DNA from: Escherichia phage ECO07P2
Reading direction: 5' to 3' (one strand)
Sequence record: OP172785
Length of the DNA: 64,000 bases
Both the position numbers and the translations under genes were made by a program. The notes beneath the pieces are model-generated. The model searched no databases, was not told the origin of the DNA, and saw nothing but the letters and a program-made list of their open reading frames with translations. This document shows positions 613-10,692 of this stretch, in pieces. The first letter of the stretch is position 1; every line of letters starts with the position of its first letter.

Positions 613-3600
613 ATGGCCGAGATTAAAAGAAAGTTCAGAGCAGAAGATGGTCTGGACGCAGGTGGTGATAAAATAATCAACGTAGCTTTAGCTGATCGTA
701 CCGTAGGAACTGACGGTGTTAACGTTGATTACTTAATTCAAGAAAATACAGTTCAACAATACGATCCAACTCGTGGATATTTAAAAGATTTTGTAATCAT
801 TTATGATAACCGCTTTTGGGCTGCTATAAATGATATTCCAAAACCGGCAGGAGCTTTTAATAGCGGACGCTGGAGAGCATTACGTACCGATGCTAACTGG
901 ATTACAGTCTCATCTGGTTCATATCAATTAAAATCCGGTGAAGCTATTTCGGTTAACACTGCAGCTGGTAATGATATTACGTTTACTTTACCATCTTCCC
1001 CAATTGACGGTGATACTATCGTTCTCCAAGATATTGGAGGAAAACCTGGAGTTAACCAAGTTTTAATTGTAGCTCCAGTGCAAAGTATTGTAAACTTCAG
1101 AGGCGAACAAGTACGTTCAGTACTAATGACTCATCCAAAGTCACAGCTAGTTTTAATTTTTAGTAATCGTCTGTGGCAAATGTATGTAGCTGATTATAGT
1201 AGAGAAGCTGTAGTTGTAACACCAGCGAATACTTATCAAGCGCAATCTAACGATTTTATCGTACGTAGATTTACTTCTGCTGCACCGATTAATATTAAAC
1301 TTCCGAGATTTGCTAATCACGGCGATATTATTAATTTCGTCGATTTGGACAAATTAAATCCACTTTATCATACAATTGTTACGACATACGATGAAACTAC
1401 TTCAATACAAGAAGATGGAACTCATTCTATTGAAGGCCGCACATCGATTGACGGTTTCTTGATGTATGATGATAATGAAAAATTGTGGAGATTGTTTGAC
1501 GGGGACAGTAAAGCACGTTTACGCATTATAACGACTAATTCAAATATTCGTCCAAATGAAGAAGTTATGGTATTTGGTGCGAATAACGGAATGACTCAAA
1601 CAATTGAACTTCAGCTTCCAACTAATATTTCTGTTGGTGATACTGTTAAAATTTCCATGAATTACATGAGAAAAGGACAAACAGTTAAAATCAAAGCTGC
1701 AGGTGAAGATAAAATTGCTTCTTCAGTTCAATTGCTGCAATTCCCAAAACGTTCAGAATATCCGCCTGAAGCTGAATGGGTGACTGTTCAAGAATTAGTT
1801 TTTAACGGTGAAACTAATTATGTTCCAGTTTTACAACTTGCTTATATAGAAGATTCTGACGGAAAATACTGGGTAGTACAGCAAAACGTTCCAACCGTAG
1901 AAAGAGTCGATTCGTTAAATGATTCTACTAGAGCAAGATTAGGCGTGATTGCTTTAGCTACACAAGCTCAAGCTAATGCCGATTTAGAAAATTCTCCACA
2001 AAAAGAATTAGCAATTACTCCAGAAACATTAGCTAACCGTACTGCTACAGAAACTCGTAGAGGTATCGCAAGAATAGCAACTACTGCTCAAGTGAATCAG
2101 AACACTACATTCTCTTTTGCTGACGATATTATCATCACTCCTAAAAAGCTGAATGAAAGAACTGCCACAGAAACTCGTAGAGGTGTTGCTGAAATTGCTA
2201 CGCAGCAGGAAACTAATGCAGGTACTGATGATACTACAATCATCACTCCTAAAAAGCTTCAAGCTCGTCAAGGTTCTGAATCATTATCTGGTATTGTAAC
2301 ATTTGTATCTACTGCAGGAGCTACTCCAGCTTCTAGTCGTGAATTAAATGGTACAAACGTTTATAATAAAAACACTAATAATTTAGTTGTTTCGCCTAAA
2401 GCTCTGGATCAGTATAAAGCTACTCCAACACAACAAGGCGCAGTAATTTTAGCAGTTGAAAGTGAAGTAATTGCTGGAAAAAGTCAAGAAGGATGGGCAA
2501 ATGCGGTTGTAACGCCAGAAACGTTACATAAAAAGACATCAACTGATGGAAGAATTGGTTTAATTGAAATTGCTACGCAAAGTGAAGTTAATACGGGAAC
2601 TGATTATACTCGTGCAGTCACTCCTAAAACTTTAAATGACCGTATAGCAACTGAAAGTTTAAGTGGTATAGCTGAAATTGCTACACAAGTTGAATTCGAC
2701 GCAGGCGTCGACGATACTCGTATCTCTACACCATTAAAAATTAAAACTAGATTTAATAGTACTGATCGTACTTCTGTTGTTGCTCTATCTGGATTAGTTG
2801 AATCAGGAACTCTCTGGGACCATTATACCCTTAATATTCTTGAAGCAAATGAGACACAGCGTGGTACACTTCGTGTAGCTACACAAGTTGAAGCTGCTGC
2901 AGGAACATTGGATAATGTTTTAATAACTCCTAAAAAGCTTTTAGGTACTAAATCTACTGAAGCACAGGAAGGTGTTATTAAAGTTGCAACTCAGTCTGAA
3001 ACTGTGACTGGAACGTCAGCAAATACTGCTGTATCTCCAAAAAATTTAAAATGGATTGTGCAGAGTGAACCTACTTGGGCAGCTACTACTGCGATAAGAG
3101 GTTTTGTTAAAATGTCTGAAGGCGCAATTACTTTTGTCGGTAATGCAACTGCAGGTTCGACCCAGGCTCTTGACCTGTACGAGAAAAATAGCTATGCTAT
3201 CTCTCCGTACGAGTTAAACAAAACTCTTGGTAACTTCCTGCCGCGTTTGGCTAAAGCAGCAGACTCGGATAAACTGGATAACCTGGATAGTACACAGTTT
3301 ATTCGTCGTGATGTAGCCCAGGATATTAATGCTACTATGACATTTAAACAGCCTGCAAGAATTGAAAGTACTTTAACCGCTACAGGTGTGGTTAATTTGA
3401 GTGGTTCTGTTACTTCAAATAATACCACATTAACCGGTGCTACTGCAATCAATAGCAATTCTACTGTAGGTGCTCAGAATTACATTGAGTTCACTTCACT
3501 TTCGCAAGGCTCGGGTACTTGGACCTCTCAACATGATAGCAATGTTAAAGCTCCTGTATTTTTAAATATAACTACTCTAGCTGGCGCATCTAGATACGTT

Positions 3601-4458
3601 CCTTTAATTAAGCAACGTTATAAAGATGGAACATTTACCTTTGGTACATTGACAAATGAACCTACCTCAAATGATGAAGGTGCTTTTATTCTTCATTATA
3701 TAGATGCAGTAAAAACCCAGCGCAAATGGTCCTTTAGACGGAACGGTGATTTAGAAATATCGGCAGGTAATTTCGTTCTTGGTAATGGGACTGCTGTAAT
3801 TAATGGCGGGCTTAATGTTACTAAAGCTTCAGGTATTACAACCACCAGTCTAGTTGCTAATAGCGAATCTAGATTCGAAGGTGCCGTTACTATTAACAAC
3901 TTCCTTACGGTAAGCAACAAAGCTACCATTAACAACGGCTTAGATGTTCAGAAATATGCAAGGGTTACAGGAGATAAGACTTCTGACATCTATAGCAGAA
4001 AACCTACAATGGATAATGTTGGTTTTTGGTCTATAGACATCAACGATTCAGCCACTTATAACCAGTTCCCAGGTTATTTTAAAATGGTTGAAAAAACTAA
4101 TGAAGTGACTGGACTTCCATACTTAGAACGTGGTGAAGAAGTTAAATCTCCTGGTACATTGACTCAGTTTGGTAACACACTTGATTCGCTTTACCAAGAT
4201 TGGATTACTTATCCAACGACTCCAGAAGCACGTACCACTCGCTGGACGCGTACATGGCAGAAAACCAAAAACTCTTGGTCGAGTTTTGTTCAGGTATTTG
4301 ATGGAGGTAACCCTCCTCAGCCGTCTGATATCGGTGCTTTACCATCTGATAATGCTACAATGGGGAATCTTACTATTCGTGATTTCTTACGAATTGGTAA
4401 TGTTCGCATTGTTCCTGACCCAGTGAATAAATCTGTTAAATTTGAATGGATTGAATAG
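613..4458 (+). CDS. 34: long tail fibre proximal subunit gp34
   Basis: 1281 aa ORF (T4 gp34 about 1289 aa), position after rnh, repeated fibre shaft motifs (TPKKL, ATQ..., RGVAEIATQ). Confidence 0.9.
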   Translation: MAEIKRKFRAEDGLDAGGDKIINVALADRTVGTDGVNVDYLIQENTVQQYDPTRGYLKDFVIIYDNRFWAAINDIPKPAGAFNSGRWRALRTDANWITVSSGSYQLKSGEAISVNTAAGNDITFTLPSSPIDGDTIVLQDIGGKPGVNQVLIVAPVQSIVNFRGEQVRSVLMTHPKSQLVLIFSNRLWQMYVADYSREAVVVTPANTYQAQSNDFIVRRFTSAAPINIKLPRFANHGDIINFVDLDKLNPLYHTIVTTYDETTSIQEDGTHSIEGRTSIDGFLMYDDNEKLWRLFDGDSKARLRIITTNSNIRPNEEVMVFGANNGMTQTIELQLPTNISVGDTVKISMNYMRKGQTVKIKAAGEDKIASSVQLLQFPKRSEYPPEAEWVTVQELVFNGETNYVPVLQLAYIEDSDGKYWVVQQNVPTVERVDSLNDSTRARLGVIALATQAQANADLENSPQKELAITPETLANRTATETRRGIARIATTAQVNQNTTFSFADDIIITPKKLNERTATETRRGVAEIATQQETNAGTDDTTIITPKKLQARQGSESLSGIVTFVSTAGATPASSRELNGTNVYNKNTNNLVVSPKALDQYKATPTQQGAVILAVESEVIAGKSQEGWANAVVTPETLHKKTSTDGRIGLIEIATQSEVNTGTDYTRAVTPKTLNDRIATESLSGIAEIATQVEFDAGVDDTRISTPLKIKTRFNSTDRTSVVALSGLVESGTLWDHYTLNILEANETQRGTLRVATQVEAAAGTLDNVLITPKKLLGTKSTEAQEGVIKVATQSETVTGTSANTAVSPKNLKWIVQSEPTWAATTAIRGFVKMSEGAITFVGNATAGSTQALDLYEKNSYAISPYELNKTLGNFLPRLAKAADSDKLDNLDSTQFIRRDVAQDINATMTFKQPARIESTLTATGVVNLSGSVTSNNTTLTGATAINSNSTVGAQNYIEFTSLSQGSGTWTSQHDSNVKAPVFLNITTLAGASRYVPLIKQRYKDGTFTFGTLTNEPTSNDEGAFILHYIDAVKTQRKWSFRRNGDLEISAGNFVLGNGTAVINGGLNVTKASGITTTSLVANSESRFEGAVTINNFLTVSNKATINNGLDVQKYARVTGDKTSDIYSRKPTMDNVGFWSIDINDSATYNQFPGYFKMVEKTNEVTGLPYLERGEEVKSPGTLTQFGNTLDSLYQDWITYPTTPEARTTRWTRTWQKTKNSWSSFVQVFDGGNPPQPSDIGALPSDNATMGNLTIRDFLRIGNVRIVPDPVNKSVKFEWIE

Positions 4459-5644: not shown

Positions 5645-6310
5645 ATGGCTGATTTAAAAGTAGGTTCAACAACTGGAGGCTCTGTTATTTGGCATCAAGG
5701 AAATTTTCCATTGAATCCAGCCGGTGACGATGTACTCTATAAATCATTTAAAATATATTCAGAATATAATAAACCACAAGCTGCAGATAACGATTTCGTT
5801 TCTAAAGCTAATGGTGGTACTTATGCATCAAAGGTAACATTTAACGGCGGTGTTCAAGTCCCATATGCTGTAAACAACACAAACCCATGCGGTATTTATC
5901 CAGGTAATGGTGATAATGCTACTTTTGCTGTAACAAATATCGATATTGTTTCGTGGAATGGTATTGGTTTTAAATCATCACAAGGTTCAGCAGACCGAAC
6001 TGTTGTAATTAATGCACGTAATGGTGATATTAGTACAAAAGGCATTGTGATAGCAGTAGGTCAAGTAAAAAGTAACGCAGCTGCTCCTATAGAAGCTCGT
6101 GATCTTACTAGAAAGGACTACGTCGATGGAGCAATAAATACTGTTACGGCAAATGCGAACTCTAGAGTGTTACGATCTGGCGACACTATGACAGGTAACT
6201 TAACTGCGCCAAACTTTTTCTCACAGAATCCCGCATCTCAACCTTCACATGTTCCACGATTTGACCAAATCGTAATTAAGGATTCTGTTCAAGATTTCGG
6301 CTATTATTAA
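5645..6310 (+). CDS. 36: long tail fibre distal connector gp36
   Basis: 221 aa (T4 gp36 221 aa), synteny. Confidence 0.85.
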
Positions 6311-6318
6311 GAGGACTT

Positions 6319-9300
6319 ATGGCTACTTTAAAACAAATACAATTTAAAAGAAGCAAAACCGCAGGTGCTCGTCCTGCTGCTTCAGTATTAGCCGAAGGTG
6401 AATTGGCTATAAACTTAAAAGATAGAACAATTTTTACTAAAGACGATTTAGGAAATATCATTGATCTGGGTTTTGCTAAAGGCGGGCAAGTTGATGGAAA
6501 TGTGACTATCAATGGTCTTTTGAAATTAAACGGCGATTATGTACAAACTGGTGGAATGACCGTAAATGGACCTATTGGTTCTACTGAAGGCATAACTGCA
6601 AAAGTTTTCAGATCTACACAAGGTTCATTTTATACAAGAGCCTCAAATGATACTTCCAATGCCCATCTTTGGTTTGAAAATGCCGATGGCATTGAACGAG
6701 GCGTTATATATGCTCGTCCTCAAACTACAACTGACGGTGAAATACGTCTTAGAGTTAGACAAGGAACCGGAAGCACTATTAATAGCGAATTCTATTTCCG
6801 TTCTATAAACGGCGGCGAATTTCAAGCCAACCGTATTTTAGCATCAGATTCGTTAGTAACTAAACGCATTGCGGTTGATACTGTTATTCACGATGCCAAA
6901 GCCTTTGGGCAATATGATTCTCAATCTTTGGTTAACTATGTTTATCCTGGAACCGGTGAAACAAACGGTATAAACTATCTTCGTAAAGTTCGCGCTAAAG
7001 CTGCCGGAACCATGTGGCATGAAATCTGTACAGCTCAGACTGGCCAAGCAGATGAAATGTCTTGGTGGACGGGTAATACTCCATCATCTAAACAATATGG
7101 TATTCGTAACGACGGCCGAATGGCTGGGCGTAATAGCCTTGCATTAGGTACATTCACTGCAGATTTCCCGTCTAGTGATTATGGTAACGTCGGTGTAATG
7201 GGCGATAAGTATCTTGTTCTCGGTGACACTGTAACTGGCTTGTCATACAAAAAAACTGGTGTATTTGATCTAGTTGGCGGTGGATATTCTGTTGCTTCTA
7301 TTACTCCTGATAGTTTCCGTAGTACTCGCAAAGGTTTATTTGGACGTTCAGAAGACCAAGGCGCTACATGGAACATGCCTGGAAACAACGCCGCGCTTTT
7401 ATCGGTTCAAACACAAGCTGATGGAAACACTGCTGGTGACGGTCAAACCCACATTGGATATAATTCTGGCGGTAAAATGAACCATTATTTCCGTGGTACA
7501 GGTCAGATGAATATCAATACCCAGCAAGGTACGGAAATTAACCCGGGTATTTTGAAATTAGTAACTGGCTCTAATAACGTACAATTTTATGCTGACGGCA
7601 CTATTTCTTCTATCCAACCTGTTAAATTAGACAACGAATTATTTTTAAATAATTCTAATAATACTGCGGGCATTAAATTTGGCGCCCCTAGCAAAGTTGA
7701 TGGCTCGAGAACTATCCAATGGAATGCCGGGACCCGTGCAGGACAAAATAAAAATTATCTGATTATGAAAGCTTGGGGTAATGCATTCGACTCCACTGCC
7801 GGTAATCGCGAAACTGTATTTGAATTATACGATGGTCAGGGCTATCATTTTTATTCTCAACGTTTAGCTCCAACGGGTTCTGAAACTGTCGGTGCTCTTC
7901 AATTTAGAATTTCCGGCGCTTTACGTGTGGGTGGTGGTATTATATCAGCTGGTTCTATTGTTAGTGAATCAAGTTTAGTTGCAAATAATGGATTGTCTAT
8001 AAACGGCCAAGCTAAATTCGGTGGAACTGCAGATGCATTGAGAATTTGGAATGCTGAATATGGTGCTATTTTCCGTCGTTCAGAAACAGCATTGCACATT
8101 ATTCCTACTCTTAAAGACCAAGGAGAAAATGGTGAAATAGGTAATCTTCGTCCATTGAGCATCGCACTTCATAACGGTATGGTGCAAATGCGTCATTCCG
8201 TCACGTTAGGTGATGATGGTGCAGGCGGTAATATGGTTACTGTTGATAATGATAGTAAACTTGTTGTTGTTACTAGTAATAGTCGCATTTCTCCTAATTA
8301 TAATATGCAATTAGGACAAAATGCTTATATAGATATTCAGGCTTCTGACGGCGTTCGTCCAGCAGGGTGTGGTTCATTTGCATCCCAGAATGACGTAAAC
8401 GTCAGAGCTCCAATTTATATGAATATAGAGCGTACTGCTACTTCTGAATACATTCCTATTATTAAACAACGGTATGTAAAGGGTGATAGCACTTATTCTA
8501 TTGGCACCTTAATTGCCCAAGGAGACTTCCGTGTCCATTATCACCAAGGTACTAGTACTACCGGAACCGATATAAGTTGGGAATTCCGTCGTACCGGTGA
8601 CTTCCGCTTACCTGGTAAAATTATTGTAGGCAACACAACTTTAGGAACTGATGGTAATATCACCGGTGGCTCTGGTAACTTTGCTAACTTAAACAGTACG
8701 ATTGAATCACTTAAAACTGATATTGTTTCAAGTTATCCTATTGGAGCTCCAATTCCATGGCCAACGGATACTCCTCCTGACGGTTACGCTATTATGGAAG
8801 GTCAGACTTTTGATAAGTCTGCATATCCTAAGCTCGCTATCGCATATCCTACAGGTACTATTCCTGATATGCGTGGACAAACTATCAAGGGTAAACCAAG
8901 TGGTCGTGCTGTTTTGAGCGCAGAAGCAGATGGTGTTAAGGCTCATAGTCATAGTGCAAGTGCATCAAGCACAGATTTAGGTACTAAAACCACATCAAGC
9001 TTTGACTATGGTACTAAGACGACAAGTAGTTTCGACTATGGTACTAAGACCAGTAATAATACTGGTGCTCATACGCATAGTTTGAGCGGTTCCACAAACA
9101 CCGCCGGTGCGCACAGCCACACAAGCGCTCTTTATGCGGGCGATAGAGACTCTCCTGGTGGTAGTTCTGCAAGAGGATCCGCCGGTGGTGGTAATACGCT
9201 TGGAACTTCTTCTTCTGGGGCACATTCGCACTCTATATCTGGTACTGCTGCAAGCGCAGGCGCTCACGCACATACTGTTGGTATTGGTGCTCATACCCAT

Positions 9301-9435
9301 ACAGTTGGTATTGGTGCCCATACTCACTCTGTTGCGATTGGTTCGCATGATCATACTATCACTGTAAATAGTACAGGTAATACAGAAAACACGGTTAAAA
9401 ACATTGCTTTTAACTATATCGTTCGTTTAGCATAA
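6319..9435 (+). CDS. 37: long tail fibre distal subunit gp37 (receptor-binding tip with His-box repeats)
   Basis: 1038 aa; C-terminus carries HxH repeats ([33 protein letters not shown]) and ends [11 protein letters not shown] as in T4 gp37. Confidence 0.9.
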
Positions 9436-9465
9436 GGAGAGGGGCTTCGGCCCCTTCTAAATATG
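9434..9465 (+). promoter_or_regulatory. structured translation initiation region of gene 38 (SD, UUCG hairpin, AUG)
   Basis: AAGGAG then GGGGC-TTCG-GCCCC hairpin then ATG; the hairpin shortens an otherwise roughly 22 nt SD-AUG distance. Confidence 0.5.
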
Positions 9466-10014
9466 AAAATATATCATTATTATTTTGACACTAAAGAATT
9501 TTACAAAGAAGAAAATTACAAACCGGTTAAAGGTCTTGGTCTTCCCGCTCATTCAACAATTAAAAAACCTTTAGAACCTAAAGAAGGATACGCAGTTGTA
9601 TTTGATGAACGTATTCAGGATTGGATTTATGAAGAAGACCATCGCGGTAAACGGGCTTGGACTTTTAATAAAGAAGAAATCTTAATAACTGACATAGGAA
9701 GCCCGGTTGGTATAACTTTTGATGAACCCGGCGAATTTGATATATGGACTGATGATGGTTGGAAAGAAGACGAAACATATAAACGCGTTTTAATTCGTAA
9801 TAGAAAAATTGAAGAATTATATAAAGAATTCCAAGTATTGAATAATATGATCGAAGCTTCAGTTGCAAATAAAAAGGAAAAATTCTATTATCAAAACCTT
9901 AAACGGTTCTTTGCTCTTTTAGAAAAGCATGAGCATTTAGGTGGTGAATTTCCTAAATGGCCTGAAAAAGAACGGAAGCCTTGGTATAAGCGTTTATTCA
10001 GGAATTACGTATAA
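9463..10014 (+). CDS. 38: tail fibre assembly chaperone gp38 (T4 type, not T2-type adhesin)
   Basis: 183 aa, MKIYHYYFDTKEFYKEENYKPVKGLGLPAHS... matches remembered T4 gp38. Confidence 0.85.
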   Translation: MKIYHYYFDTKEFYKEENYKPVKGLGLPAHSTIKKPLEPKEGYAVVFDERIQDWIYEEDHRGKRAWTFNKEEILITDIGSPVGITFDEPGEFDIWTDDGWKEDETYKRVLIRNRKIEELYKEFQVLNNMIEASVANKKEKFYYQNLKRFFALLEKHEHLGGEFPKWPEKERKPWYKRLFRNYV

Positions 10015-10035: not shown

Positions 10036-10692
10036 ATGGCAGCACCTAGAATATCATTTTCGCCCTCTGATATTCTGTTGGGTGTTCTAGATCGCTTGTT
10101 CAAAGATAACGCTACCGGGAAGGTTCTTGCTTCCCGGGTAGCTGTCGTAATTCTTTTATTTATGATGGCGATTGTTTGGTATAGGGGAGATAGTTTCTTT
10201 GAGTACTATAAGCAATCAAAGTATGAAACATACCGTGAAATTATTGAAAAGGAAAGAAATGCACGCTTTGAATCTGTCGCCCTGGAACAACTCCAGATAG
10301 TTCATATATCATCTGAGGCAGACTTTAGTGCGGTGTATTCTTTCCGCCCTAAAAACTTAAACTATTTTGTTGATATTATAGCATATGAAGGAAAATTACC
10401 TTCAACAATAAGTGAAAAATCACTTGGAGGATATCCTGTTGATAAAACTATGGATGAATATACAGTTCATTTAAATGGACGTCATTATTATTCCAACTCA
10501 AAATTTGCTTTTTTACCAACTAAAAAGCCTACTCCCGAAATAAATTACATGTACAGTTGTCCATATTTTAATTTGGATAACATCTATGCTGGAACAATAA
10601 CCATGTACTGGTATAGAAATGATCATATAAGTAATGACCGCCTTGAATCAATATGTTCTCAGGCGGCCAGAATATTAGGAAGGGCTAAATAA
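10036..10692 (+). CDS. t: holin T
   Basis: 218 aa, N-terminal TM segment VAVVILLFMMAIVWY, large C-terminal domain; length and position as T4 t. Confidence 0.9.
   Translation: MAAPRISFSPSDILLGVLDRLFKDNATGKVLASRVAVVILLFMMAIVWYRGDSFFEYYKQSKYETYREIIEKERNARFESVALEQLQIVHISSEADFSAVYSFRPKNLNYFVDIIAYEGKLPSTISEKSLGGYPVDKTMDEYTVHLNGRHYYSNSKFAFLPTKKPTPEINYMYSCPYFNLDNIYAGTITMYWYRNDHISNDRLESICSQAARILGRAK

Follow-up and report, generated by a model that had tools for sequence, protein, structure and literature searches.

The tandem repeats in the final 170 codons of gene 37 in the 64,000-nt stretch of Escherichia phage ECO07P2 analysed here (OP172785; the window) very probably belong to the receptor-binding needle at the C-terminus of a T4-type gp37 with a two-rung stem allele, an old structural module. 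The window encodes a normal T4-type gp37 that carries a common stem-length allele under a head of a type already present in deposited phages. The only point that may merit follow-up is a family-wide rule that couples the unit numbers on the two arms of the needle, and this rule may be more interesting than the repeats themselves.

Gene 37 lies in a tail-fibre locus whose ORFs, gene 37 included, are colinear with T4 genes 34, 35, 36, 37, 38 and t (synteny 34-35-36-37-38-t):

613-4458: ORF of 1281 aa
4467-5582: ORF
5645-6310: ORF
6319..9435, + strand: gene 37, long tail fibre distal subunit, 1038 aa plus stop (ORF list; T4 homology; synteny)
9463..10014, + strand: gene 38, T4-type tail-fibre assembly chaperone, 183 aa (T4 gp38 match; PHROG 105)
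10036-10692: ORF

The gp37 of the window was 78% identical to T4 gp37 in amino acid sequence over its full length. The original prediction had set 1038 aa against about 1026 aa for T4, and both lengths were confirmed, the former from the ORF and the latter from the T4 record (1026 aa; coordinates L001:6543-9623). Directly downstream of gene 37, the window encodes a gp38 with 95.6% amino acid identity to T4 gp38, which also matched PHROG 105 tail fiber assembly (E=1.2e-43). A gp38-type chaperone after gene 37 is as expected for a T4-type fibre. A separate 24 kb of the window was 95-97% identical to several Tequatrovirus genomes, with no record identical to it, and the phage belongs to Tequatrovirus. 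Two overlapping ORFs, 8995-9354 (- strand) and 9107-9367 (+ strand, other frame), lie entirely within the conserved gp37 frame.

The end of gp37 contains eight HxH motifs (aa 876, 918, 932, 969, 983, 992, 1001 and 1010; between nt 8944 and 9354), with spacings of 42, 14, 37, 14, 9, 9 and 9. We infer the assignment of segments to an up-strand and a down-strand in the window gp37 from homology together with the coupling rule described below. The features are as follows:

8743..8886, + strand: collar domain, aa 809-856 (Pfam PF07484 Collar)
8944..8952, + strand: HxH motif 1 (AHSH), base of the strand running tipward (aligns with the counterpart motif of 2XGF)
8980..9009, + strand: up-strand unit U1, 10 aa (Tandem Repeats Finder; in-frame reading)
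9010..9039, + strand: up-strand unit U2, 10 aa, the copy missing from T4 (alignments with T4 and 2XGF)
9040..9066, + strand: partial up-strand unit U3, GTKTSNNTG, running into HxH2 (in-frame reading)
9070..9120, + strand: up-strand distal 14-aa module with HxH2 (9070-9078) and HxH3 (9112-9120)
9121..9222, + strand: head or tip segment, HxH3 to HxH4, 34 aa (T4 alignment)
9223..9261, + strand: down-strand distal 14-aa module, beginning with HxH4 (9223-9231) (in-frame reading; symmetric 14/14 spacing about the tip, as throughout the homologues)
9262..9369, + strand: down-strand 9-aa units D1-D4 with HxH5-8, 36 aa (Tandem Repeats Finder; alignments)
9262-9288, + strand: D1, AHAHTVGIG (in-frame reading)
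9289-9315, + strand: D2, AHTHTVGIG (in-frame reading)
9316-9342, + strand: D3, AHTHSVAIG (in-frame reading)
9343-9369, + strand: D4, SHDHTITVN (in-frame reading)
9370..9432, + strand: conserved C-terminal segment, 21 aa, returning to the collar (T4 identity)

The collar, which immediately precedes the needle, matched PF07484 with E=8.9e-12 and 45.2 bits against a cutoff of 24. A second Pfam match, to the 14-residue PF03335 Phage_fiber repeat at aa 913-926 (23.2 bits against a gathering cutoff of 20), covers the distal 14-aa module and not the 10-aa or 9-aa units. At the other end, the C-terminal segment was 100% identical to T4 in nucleotide sequence over 9393-9435, and the C-terminus of the protein is identical to that of T4, in which domain D10 includes residues 1010-1026 (PMC6957217). 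The head segment at 9121..9222 is presumed to be the receptor-contacting part and is unlike that of T4. Because the head differs, the OmpC and LPS specificity of T4 should not be assumed for the phage of the window.

Both repeat arrays were recovered by repeat searches. In Tandem Repeats Finder, the first array had a 30-nt period and covered 8980-9052 (2.4 copies, 81% matches, score 97), and the second came out as 27-nt arrays that together span 9262-9342 (scores 84-92). A second repeat search recovered both array families, and both arrays were evident on in-frame reading. The tandem repeats predicted in C-terminal gp37 were thereby confirmed, as was their location, predicted as 8935-9360 and close to the span of the eight HxH motifs at 8944-9354. 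U1 and U2 encode two identical 10-aa peptides and are followed by the partial third unit U3, in agreement with a predicted first array of 30-nt units encoding 10 aa twice and then a diverged third copy (units at 8980-9066). By simple counting, we infer that chance would almost never (order 1e-10) place two exact 10-aa copies in tandem in a protein of 1038 aa. The second array had been described as a 10-aa peptide present twice and then as a variant; the array is there, but it repeats every 27 nt (9 aa) instead of every 30 nt, and a 10-aa peptide is found twice only if both copies share one His. Tandem repeats are well known for causing assembly errors, and their number could in principle have been miscounted during sequencing or assembly. 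Such an artefact is extremely improbable here, because units of only 27-30 nt that differ from one another by 19-23% allow reads to be placed uniquely, many independently sequenced genomes have an equal count, and both arrays obey the family-wide coupling with the reading frame intact. The repeat units were conserved across hundreds of homologues.

The window gp37 was aligned with T4 gp37 and its crystal structure. The last 260 aa (779-1038) matched residues 2-242 of the 2XGF chain (phmmer E=1.4e-99). The HMMER alignment to 2XGF opened two clean gaps in T4, of 10 aa and of 9 aa (the second after SVGIGA), and a full-length MAFFT alignment of the two gp37 proteins gave identical gaps. Compared with T4, the window has exactly one extra copy each of the 10-aa and the 9-aa unit (+10 and +9 aa), in frame, and eight HxH motifs as opposed to seven. 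The nucleotides of U1 are identical to those of the single up-strand unit of T4, indicating that the copy missing from T4 is the second one, U2. These alignments place both arrays in the metal-binding needle domain, as predicted. The further claim of an in-frame repeat expansion relative to T4 was correct in that each array has one extra unit, but the net difference of +12 aa on which it was based hides a loss in the shaft: the repeats contribute +19 aa, and shaft indels (-1, -11, -1, +11 and -5) contribute -7.

The architecture of the window was shared by many other phages. The C-terminal 786 nt gave colinear matches to GiZh, JQD51, ECCR664, PNJ-9 and S1P5QW, and a match to AV117 at 95.6% identity. 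Nine T4-like tips were retrieved (GiZh, F2, AV117, AV116, 212, AV122, ZQ3, F31 and JQD51), and in all nine the 10-aa unit occurs twice and four HxH motifs follow one another at a spacing of 9; four of these phages (AV117, GiZh, F2 and JQD51) also share the head type of the window. In a blastn search, the HxH1-to-HxH2 interval matched 341 phage records, 183 of which were colinear over at least 80% of the interval, while T4, RB55 and EP01 matched only its first 56%. Among ~200 distinct homologous tails, which are mutually related and were partly picked by similarity to the query so that the frequency is approximate, ~45% carry the 2+3 architecture of the window. An expansion peculiar to this phage is not supported, since the same 2+3 architecture is found in lambda, in TuIb and in the nine T4-like phages. 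Alignment with T4 and its relatives, the check proposed at the outset, therefore gave a divided answer: the copy number is unlike that of T4 but identical to that of many other relatives. T4 carries the shorter of two common alleles, and the two-rung allele of the window is at least as common. The repeat architecture is already known and has been in the databases since lambda and TuIb, whose gp37 was sequenced in 1990 and deposited in the early 1990s. T4 is thus a poor standard for how long this domain "normally" is, and a length difference from T4 does not by itself indicate an expansion.

The divergence between copies was used to examine their age. Between U1 and U2, 7 of 30 nt are different (77% nt identity); these changes fall in five codons, one of them a serine codon switched between TCA and AGT, and every change is synonymous. 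For D1 and D2 the count is 4 of 27 nt (85% nt identity). The 10-aa peptide is under purifying selection. Identity between U1 and U2 within the same genome averages 0.74 over 24 distinct loci of this class. When copies were compared across genomes, D1 of the window had identities of 0.82, 0.75 and 0.69 to D1, D2 and D3 of other genomes, respectively, and the same-position identity of U1 was 0.76, versus 0.70 for the other unit. The purely synonymous divergence of U1 and U2, together with greater likeness at the same position, shows that the duplication is older than the divergence of these fibres. The hallmarks of a recent tandem duplication, near-identical DNA copies and an extra copy missing in close relatives, were not seen for these repeats; lambda, TuIb and each of the nine closest T4-like tips carry the extra copies.

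These observations bear directly on the possibility that slippage or unequal crossing-over produced a recent in-frame expansion in the lineage of this phage, possibly changing its host range. The exact one-copy excess of each unit over T4 and the nucleotide identity of U1 to the single T4 unit are consistent with such an event, and laboratory host-range mutants of T4 reportedly carry duplications in the gp37 adhesin domain. However, the DNA of U1 and U2 has diverged to 77% identity without a single amino acid change, within-genome identity of the two units averages 0.74 across the 24 loci, and two independent slippage events would have been needed together. Copy numbers equal to those of the window in lambda, TuIb, AV117, GiZh, F2, JQD51, AV116, 212, AV122, ZQ3 and F31, and in nearly half of the distinct tails, likewise argue against it. 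A recent expansion is therefore very unlikely and is largely refuted. The extra rung would instead be an old stem module, inherited or acquired by recombination, rather than a product of recent slippage.

To test the prediction that the two arrays change together, 263 proteins and 90 loci, from a family of roughly 2000 homologues, were reduced to 192-201 distinct tails. For each tail we measured the HxH1-to-HxH2 distance and counted the 9-spaced HxH motifs in the run at its C-terminus. The tails fell into four classes, with frequencies that are approximate for the reason given above:

HxH1-to-HxH2 of 22 aa, terminal run of 2 HxH: n=2 tails
HxH1-to-HxH2 of 32 aa, terminal run of 3 HxH: n=94 tails (e.g., T4)
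HxH1-to-HxH2 of 41/42 aa, terminal run of 4 HxH: n=86 tails (e.g., window, lambda and TuIb)
HxH1-to-HxH2 of 52 aa, terminal run of 5 HxH: n=7 tails

Across the ~200 distinct tails, up-strand and down-strand unit counts were always coupled (0/1, 1/2, 2/3 or 3/4), and in the same tails the distal 14-aa modules around the head were matched as well (0/0, 1/1 or 2/2). Four to five apparent exceptions to the coupling (P0022, P0096, P0216, P0238 and P0241) were inspected and found to have matched unit numbers; mutated, lost or additional HxH motifs, or distal modules of 12 aa instead of 14 aa, accounted for their appearance. No unmatched unit numbers were found among the ~200 natural tails surveyed, which implies that the needle does not tolerate a change confined to one arm. 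On the common stem units, 83 head types (tip clusters) were distinguished, six of which occur on two rung classes each and are always coupled. This shows independent assortment of head and stem length. The head types found on two classes were also considered as proof of repeated independent paired duplications, an argument that was rejected because cassette exchange of heads gives the same pattern.

The coupling fits the known architecture of the needle. PMC9659904 describes the T4 needle as a six-stranded antiparallel beta structure in which each of the three chains extends to the head and then returns, and PMC6957217 and PMC11705849 describe seven irons on its axis, bound by histidines of the three chains, and delimit domain D11 as residues 882-1009. 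In T4, each HxH motif, contributed by all three chains, holds one iron. A needle of this kind would have to lengthen on both arms together. In the proximal stem, the outgoing strand would carry the 10-aa units and the returning strand the 9-aa AH(x)H(T/S)V(G/A)IG units, such that one outgoing and one returning unit would make up one "rung" with one more HxH site. The two-rung allele would then be one of four quantised length classes. An eighth HxH layer would probably raise the number of irons to 8 per trimer, and the stem is estimated to be ~3 nm longer than that of T4, corresponding to about nine residues of extended strand. The extra rung is predicted to set the length and stability of the needle with no direct receptor contact, and the head segment from HxH3 to HxH4 would determine which receptor is chosen. 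An AlphaFold2 monomer model of aa 779-1038, built on a 55-sequence alignment, had a pLDDT of 60.4 and a pTM of 0.29 and rendered the proximal repeats as coil; Foldseek with this low-confidence model returned 2xgf_A as the top match (E=1.4e-16, TM 0.34-0.40, rmsd 16).

The repeats had originally been assigned to the receptor-determining tip, and this assignment was not upheld, as they sit in the proximal stem, outside the HxH3-HxH4 head. Contact of the repeat units themselves with a receptor (LPS or porin), their copy number tuning specificity or avidity, would be in keeping with their richness in exposed Thr, Ser and Lys, and duplications in the gp37 adhesin domain are said to expand the host range of T4. 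This is nevertheless unlikely, since the units are nearly invariant beneath the 83 clusters of unrelated tips, the pattern of a scaffold rather than a specificity determinant, and adjoin the collar, at the opposite end of the stem from the head. Further, loss-of-function and binding mutations of T4 map to tip residues 929-953, and the head of T4 contains the residues required to bind LPS and OmpC (PMC6957217).

If the repeats are a stem module, as we favor, needle length could evolve as a quantised trait, perhaps in adjustment to how deep the host surface layer is, with unmatched rungs acting as a hidden incompatibility between alleles; we consider this broader proposal possible but doubtful. 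Were it true, an unmatched rung number would prevent alleles of different class from recombining by a single crossover within the needle, and rung matching would have to be respected in engineered chimeric fibres. For tip swaps between T4-like or lambda-like fibres, the numbers of up-strand and down-strand units should be kept matched.

Comparison with characterized fibres sets the window allele in context. The T4 gp37 needle (PDB 2XGF; Bartual et al. 2010) and that of the window have in common the collar, the up-and-down HxH needle and the head, as well as the conserved C-terminal segment and the downstream gp38 chaperone, and the T4 collar and first unit are ~99% identical in protein sequence to those of the window. 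The 10-aa up-strand unit is single in T4 and double in the window, and the terminal run has three HxH motifs in T4 and four in the window. The T4 head has the same spacing (37 aa) as the window head, but its sequence is largely unrelated.

In contrast, the gp37 of the Mosigvirus AV117 (OR352947) agrees exactly with that of the window in repeat architecture and shares its head type. Its 190-aa tail differs from that of the window at 2 residues (DRDSPGG and SHDH in the window, DRNSPGG and SHGH in AV117) and is 95.6% identical in nucleotide sequence, with a patch of synonymous differences in D3-D4. The remainder of gp37 and the genome backbone of AV117, GiZh, F2 and JQD51 differ from those of the window.

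More distant fibres carry the same stem. Lambda Stf (orf-314 is its C-terminal part) and lambdoid prophage fibres have two GTKTT(S/G)SFDY units and eight HxH motifs, and lambda Stf shares with the window the 4-HxH terminal run, the C-terminal segment and a downstream chaperone of the Tfa/gp38 type. Lambda is a siphovirus, however, and the head of its Stf is longer and unrelated (49-aa spacing); its N-terminal shaft is unrelated to T4 gp37. In the T-even phage TuIb, gp37 (X55191, "receptor-recognizing protein 37") has the 10-aa unit twice, exactly the repeat units of the window, and a down-strand of two AHxHTVGIG units followed by AHTHTVAIG and SHGH, beneath a longer head (55-aa spacing) of a different type from that of the window.

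Finally, the mutants of Tetart et al. 1996 resemble the window in having in-frame duplications in the His-box region of gp37. Those duplications, in the adhesin domain of T4 gp37, reportedly can expand host range, and they are said to have been fresh, laboratory-made and selected on a new host. By that precedent, stem length may have a role in host range. The copies in the window differ from these duplications in being old, diverged and part of a standing polymorphism.

The gp37 gene (long tail fibre distal subunit) is related to its T4 counterpart to very different degrees along its length. Nucleotide identity was 83-95% up to about 7668, fell to 45-69% between about 7816 and 8664, where compensating 11-aa indels were present, and rose again to 82-87% in the collar. 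The shaft (window 7669-8664) is thus a mosaic relative to T4.

The annotated gp37 CDS of Escherichia phage F2 (MN864145) is 3615 nt long (about 1204 aa), and the last 786 nt of the window gene matched it in two pieces spread over 1212 nt, indicating an insertion of roughly 140 aa in F2, upstream of the needle. The F2 up-strand repeat region was 100% identical to its window counterpart. When the interval from HxH1 to HxH2 was used as a query, its distal half (query 55-134) had 76-81% nucleotide identity to tail-fibre genes of Felixounavirus and related Salmonella and Escherichia phages of about 85 kb (matches H137-H150). These matches indicate that phages far outside the T4-like and lambdoid groups share the needle stem module.

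Phage AV117 matches the window at every nucleotide but one across 8930 to about 9317. Between 9310 and 9350, mostly synonymous differences cluster in the down-strand units D3 and D4, upstream of the invariant C-terminal segment. From the sequence comparison, this distribution suggests a very short recombination patch. Two further entries in the ORF list overlap the repeat region within the gp37 frame:

8995-9354, (-) strand, ORF of 119 aa
9107-9367, (+) strand in another frame, ORF of 86 aa

Both are probably by-products of repetitive, stop-poor sequence.

The final HxH motif, HxH8 (window 9346-9354, aa 1010-1012), reads SHDH, while T4, lambda, TuIb and nine other T4-like tips have SHGH. Among the roughly 200 distinct homologous tails surveyed, SHGHT was the most frequent form of the last motif (71 tails). 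An Asp in this place is uncommon, but the window is not the only case: AHDHT occurs in two survey tails, the T4-like P0127 and P0129 among them.

Between the gp37 stop codon (9433-9435) and the start of the chaperone gene gp38 (9463) lies a tetraloop hairpin, GGGGC-UUCG-GCCCC (9441-9454), immediately preceded by a Shine-Dalgarno-like run, GGAGA. The minimum free energy of 9430-9470 was -15.6 kcal/mol (z = -2.9 versus shuffles). T4 carries the same intergenic hairpin, but with one C fewer.
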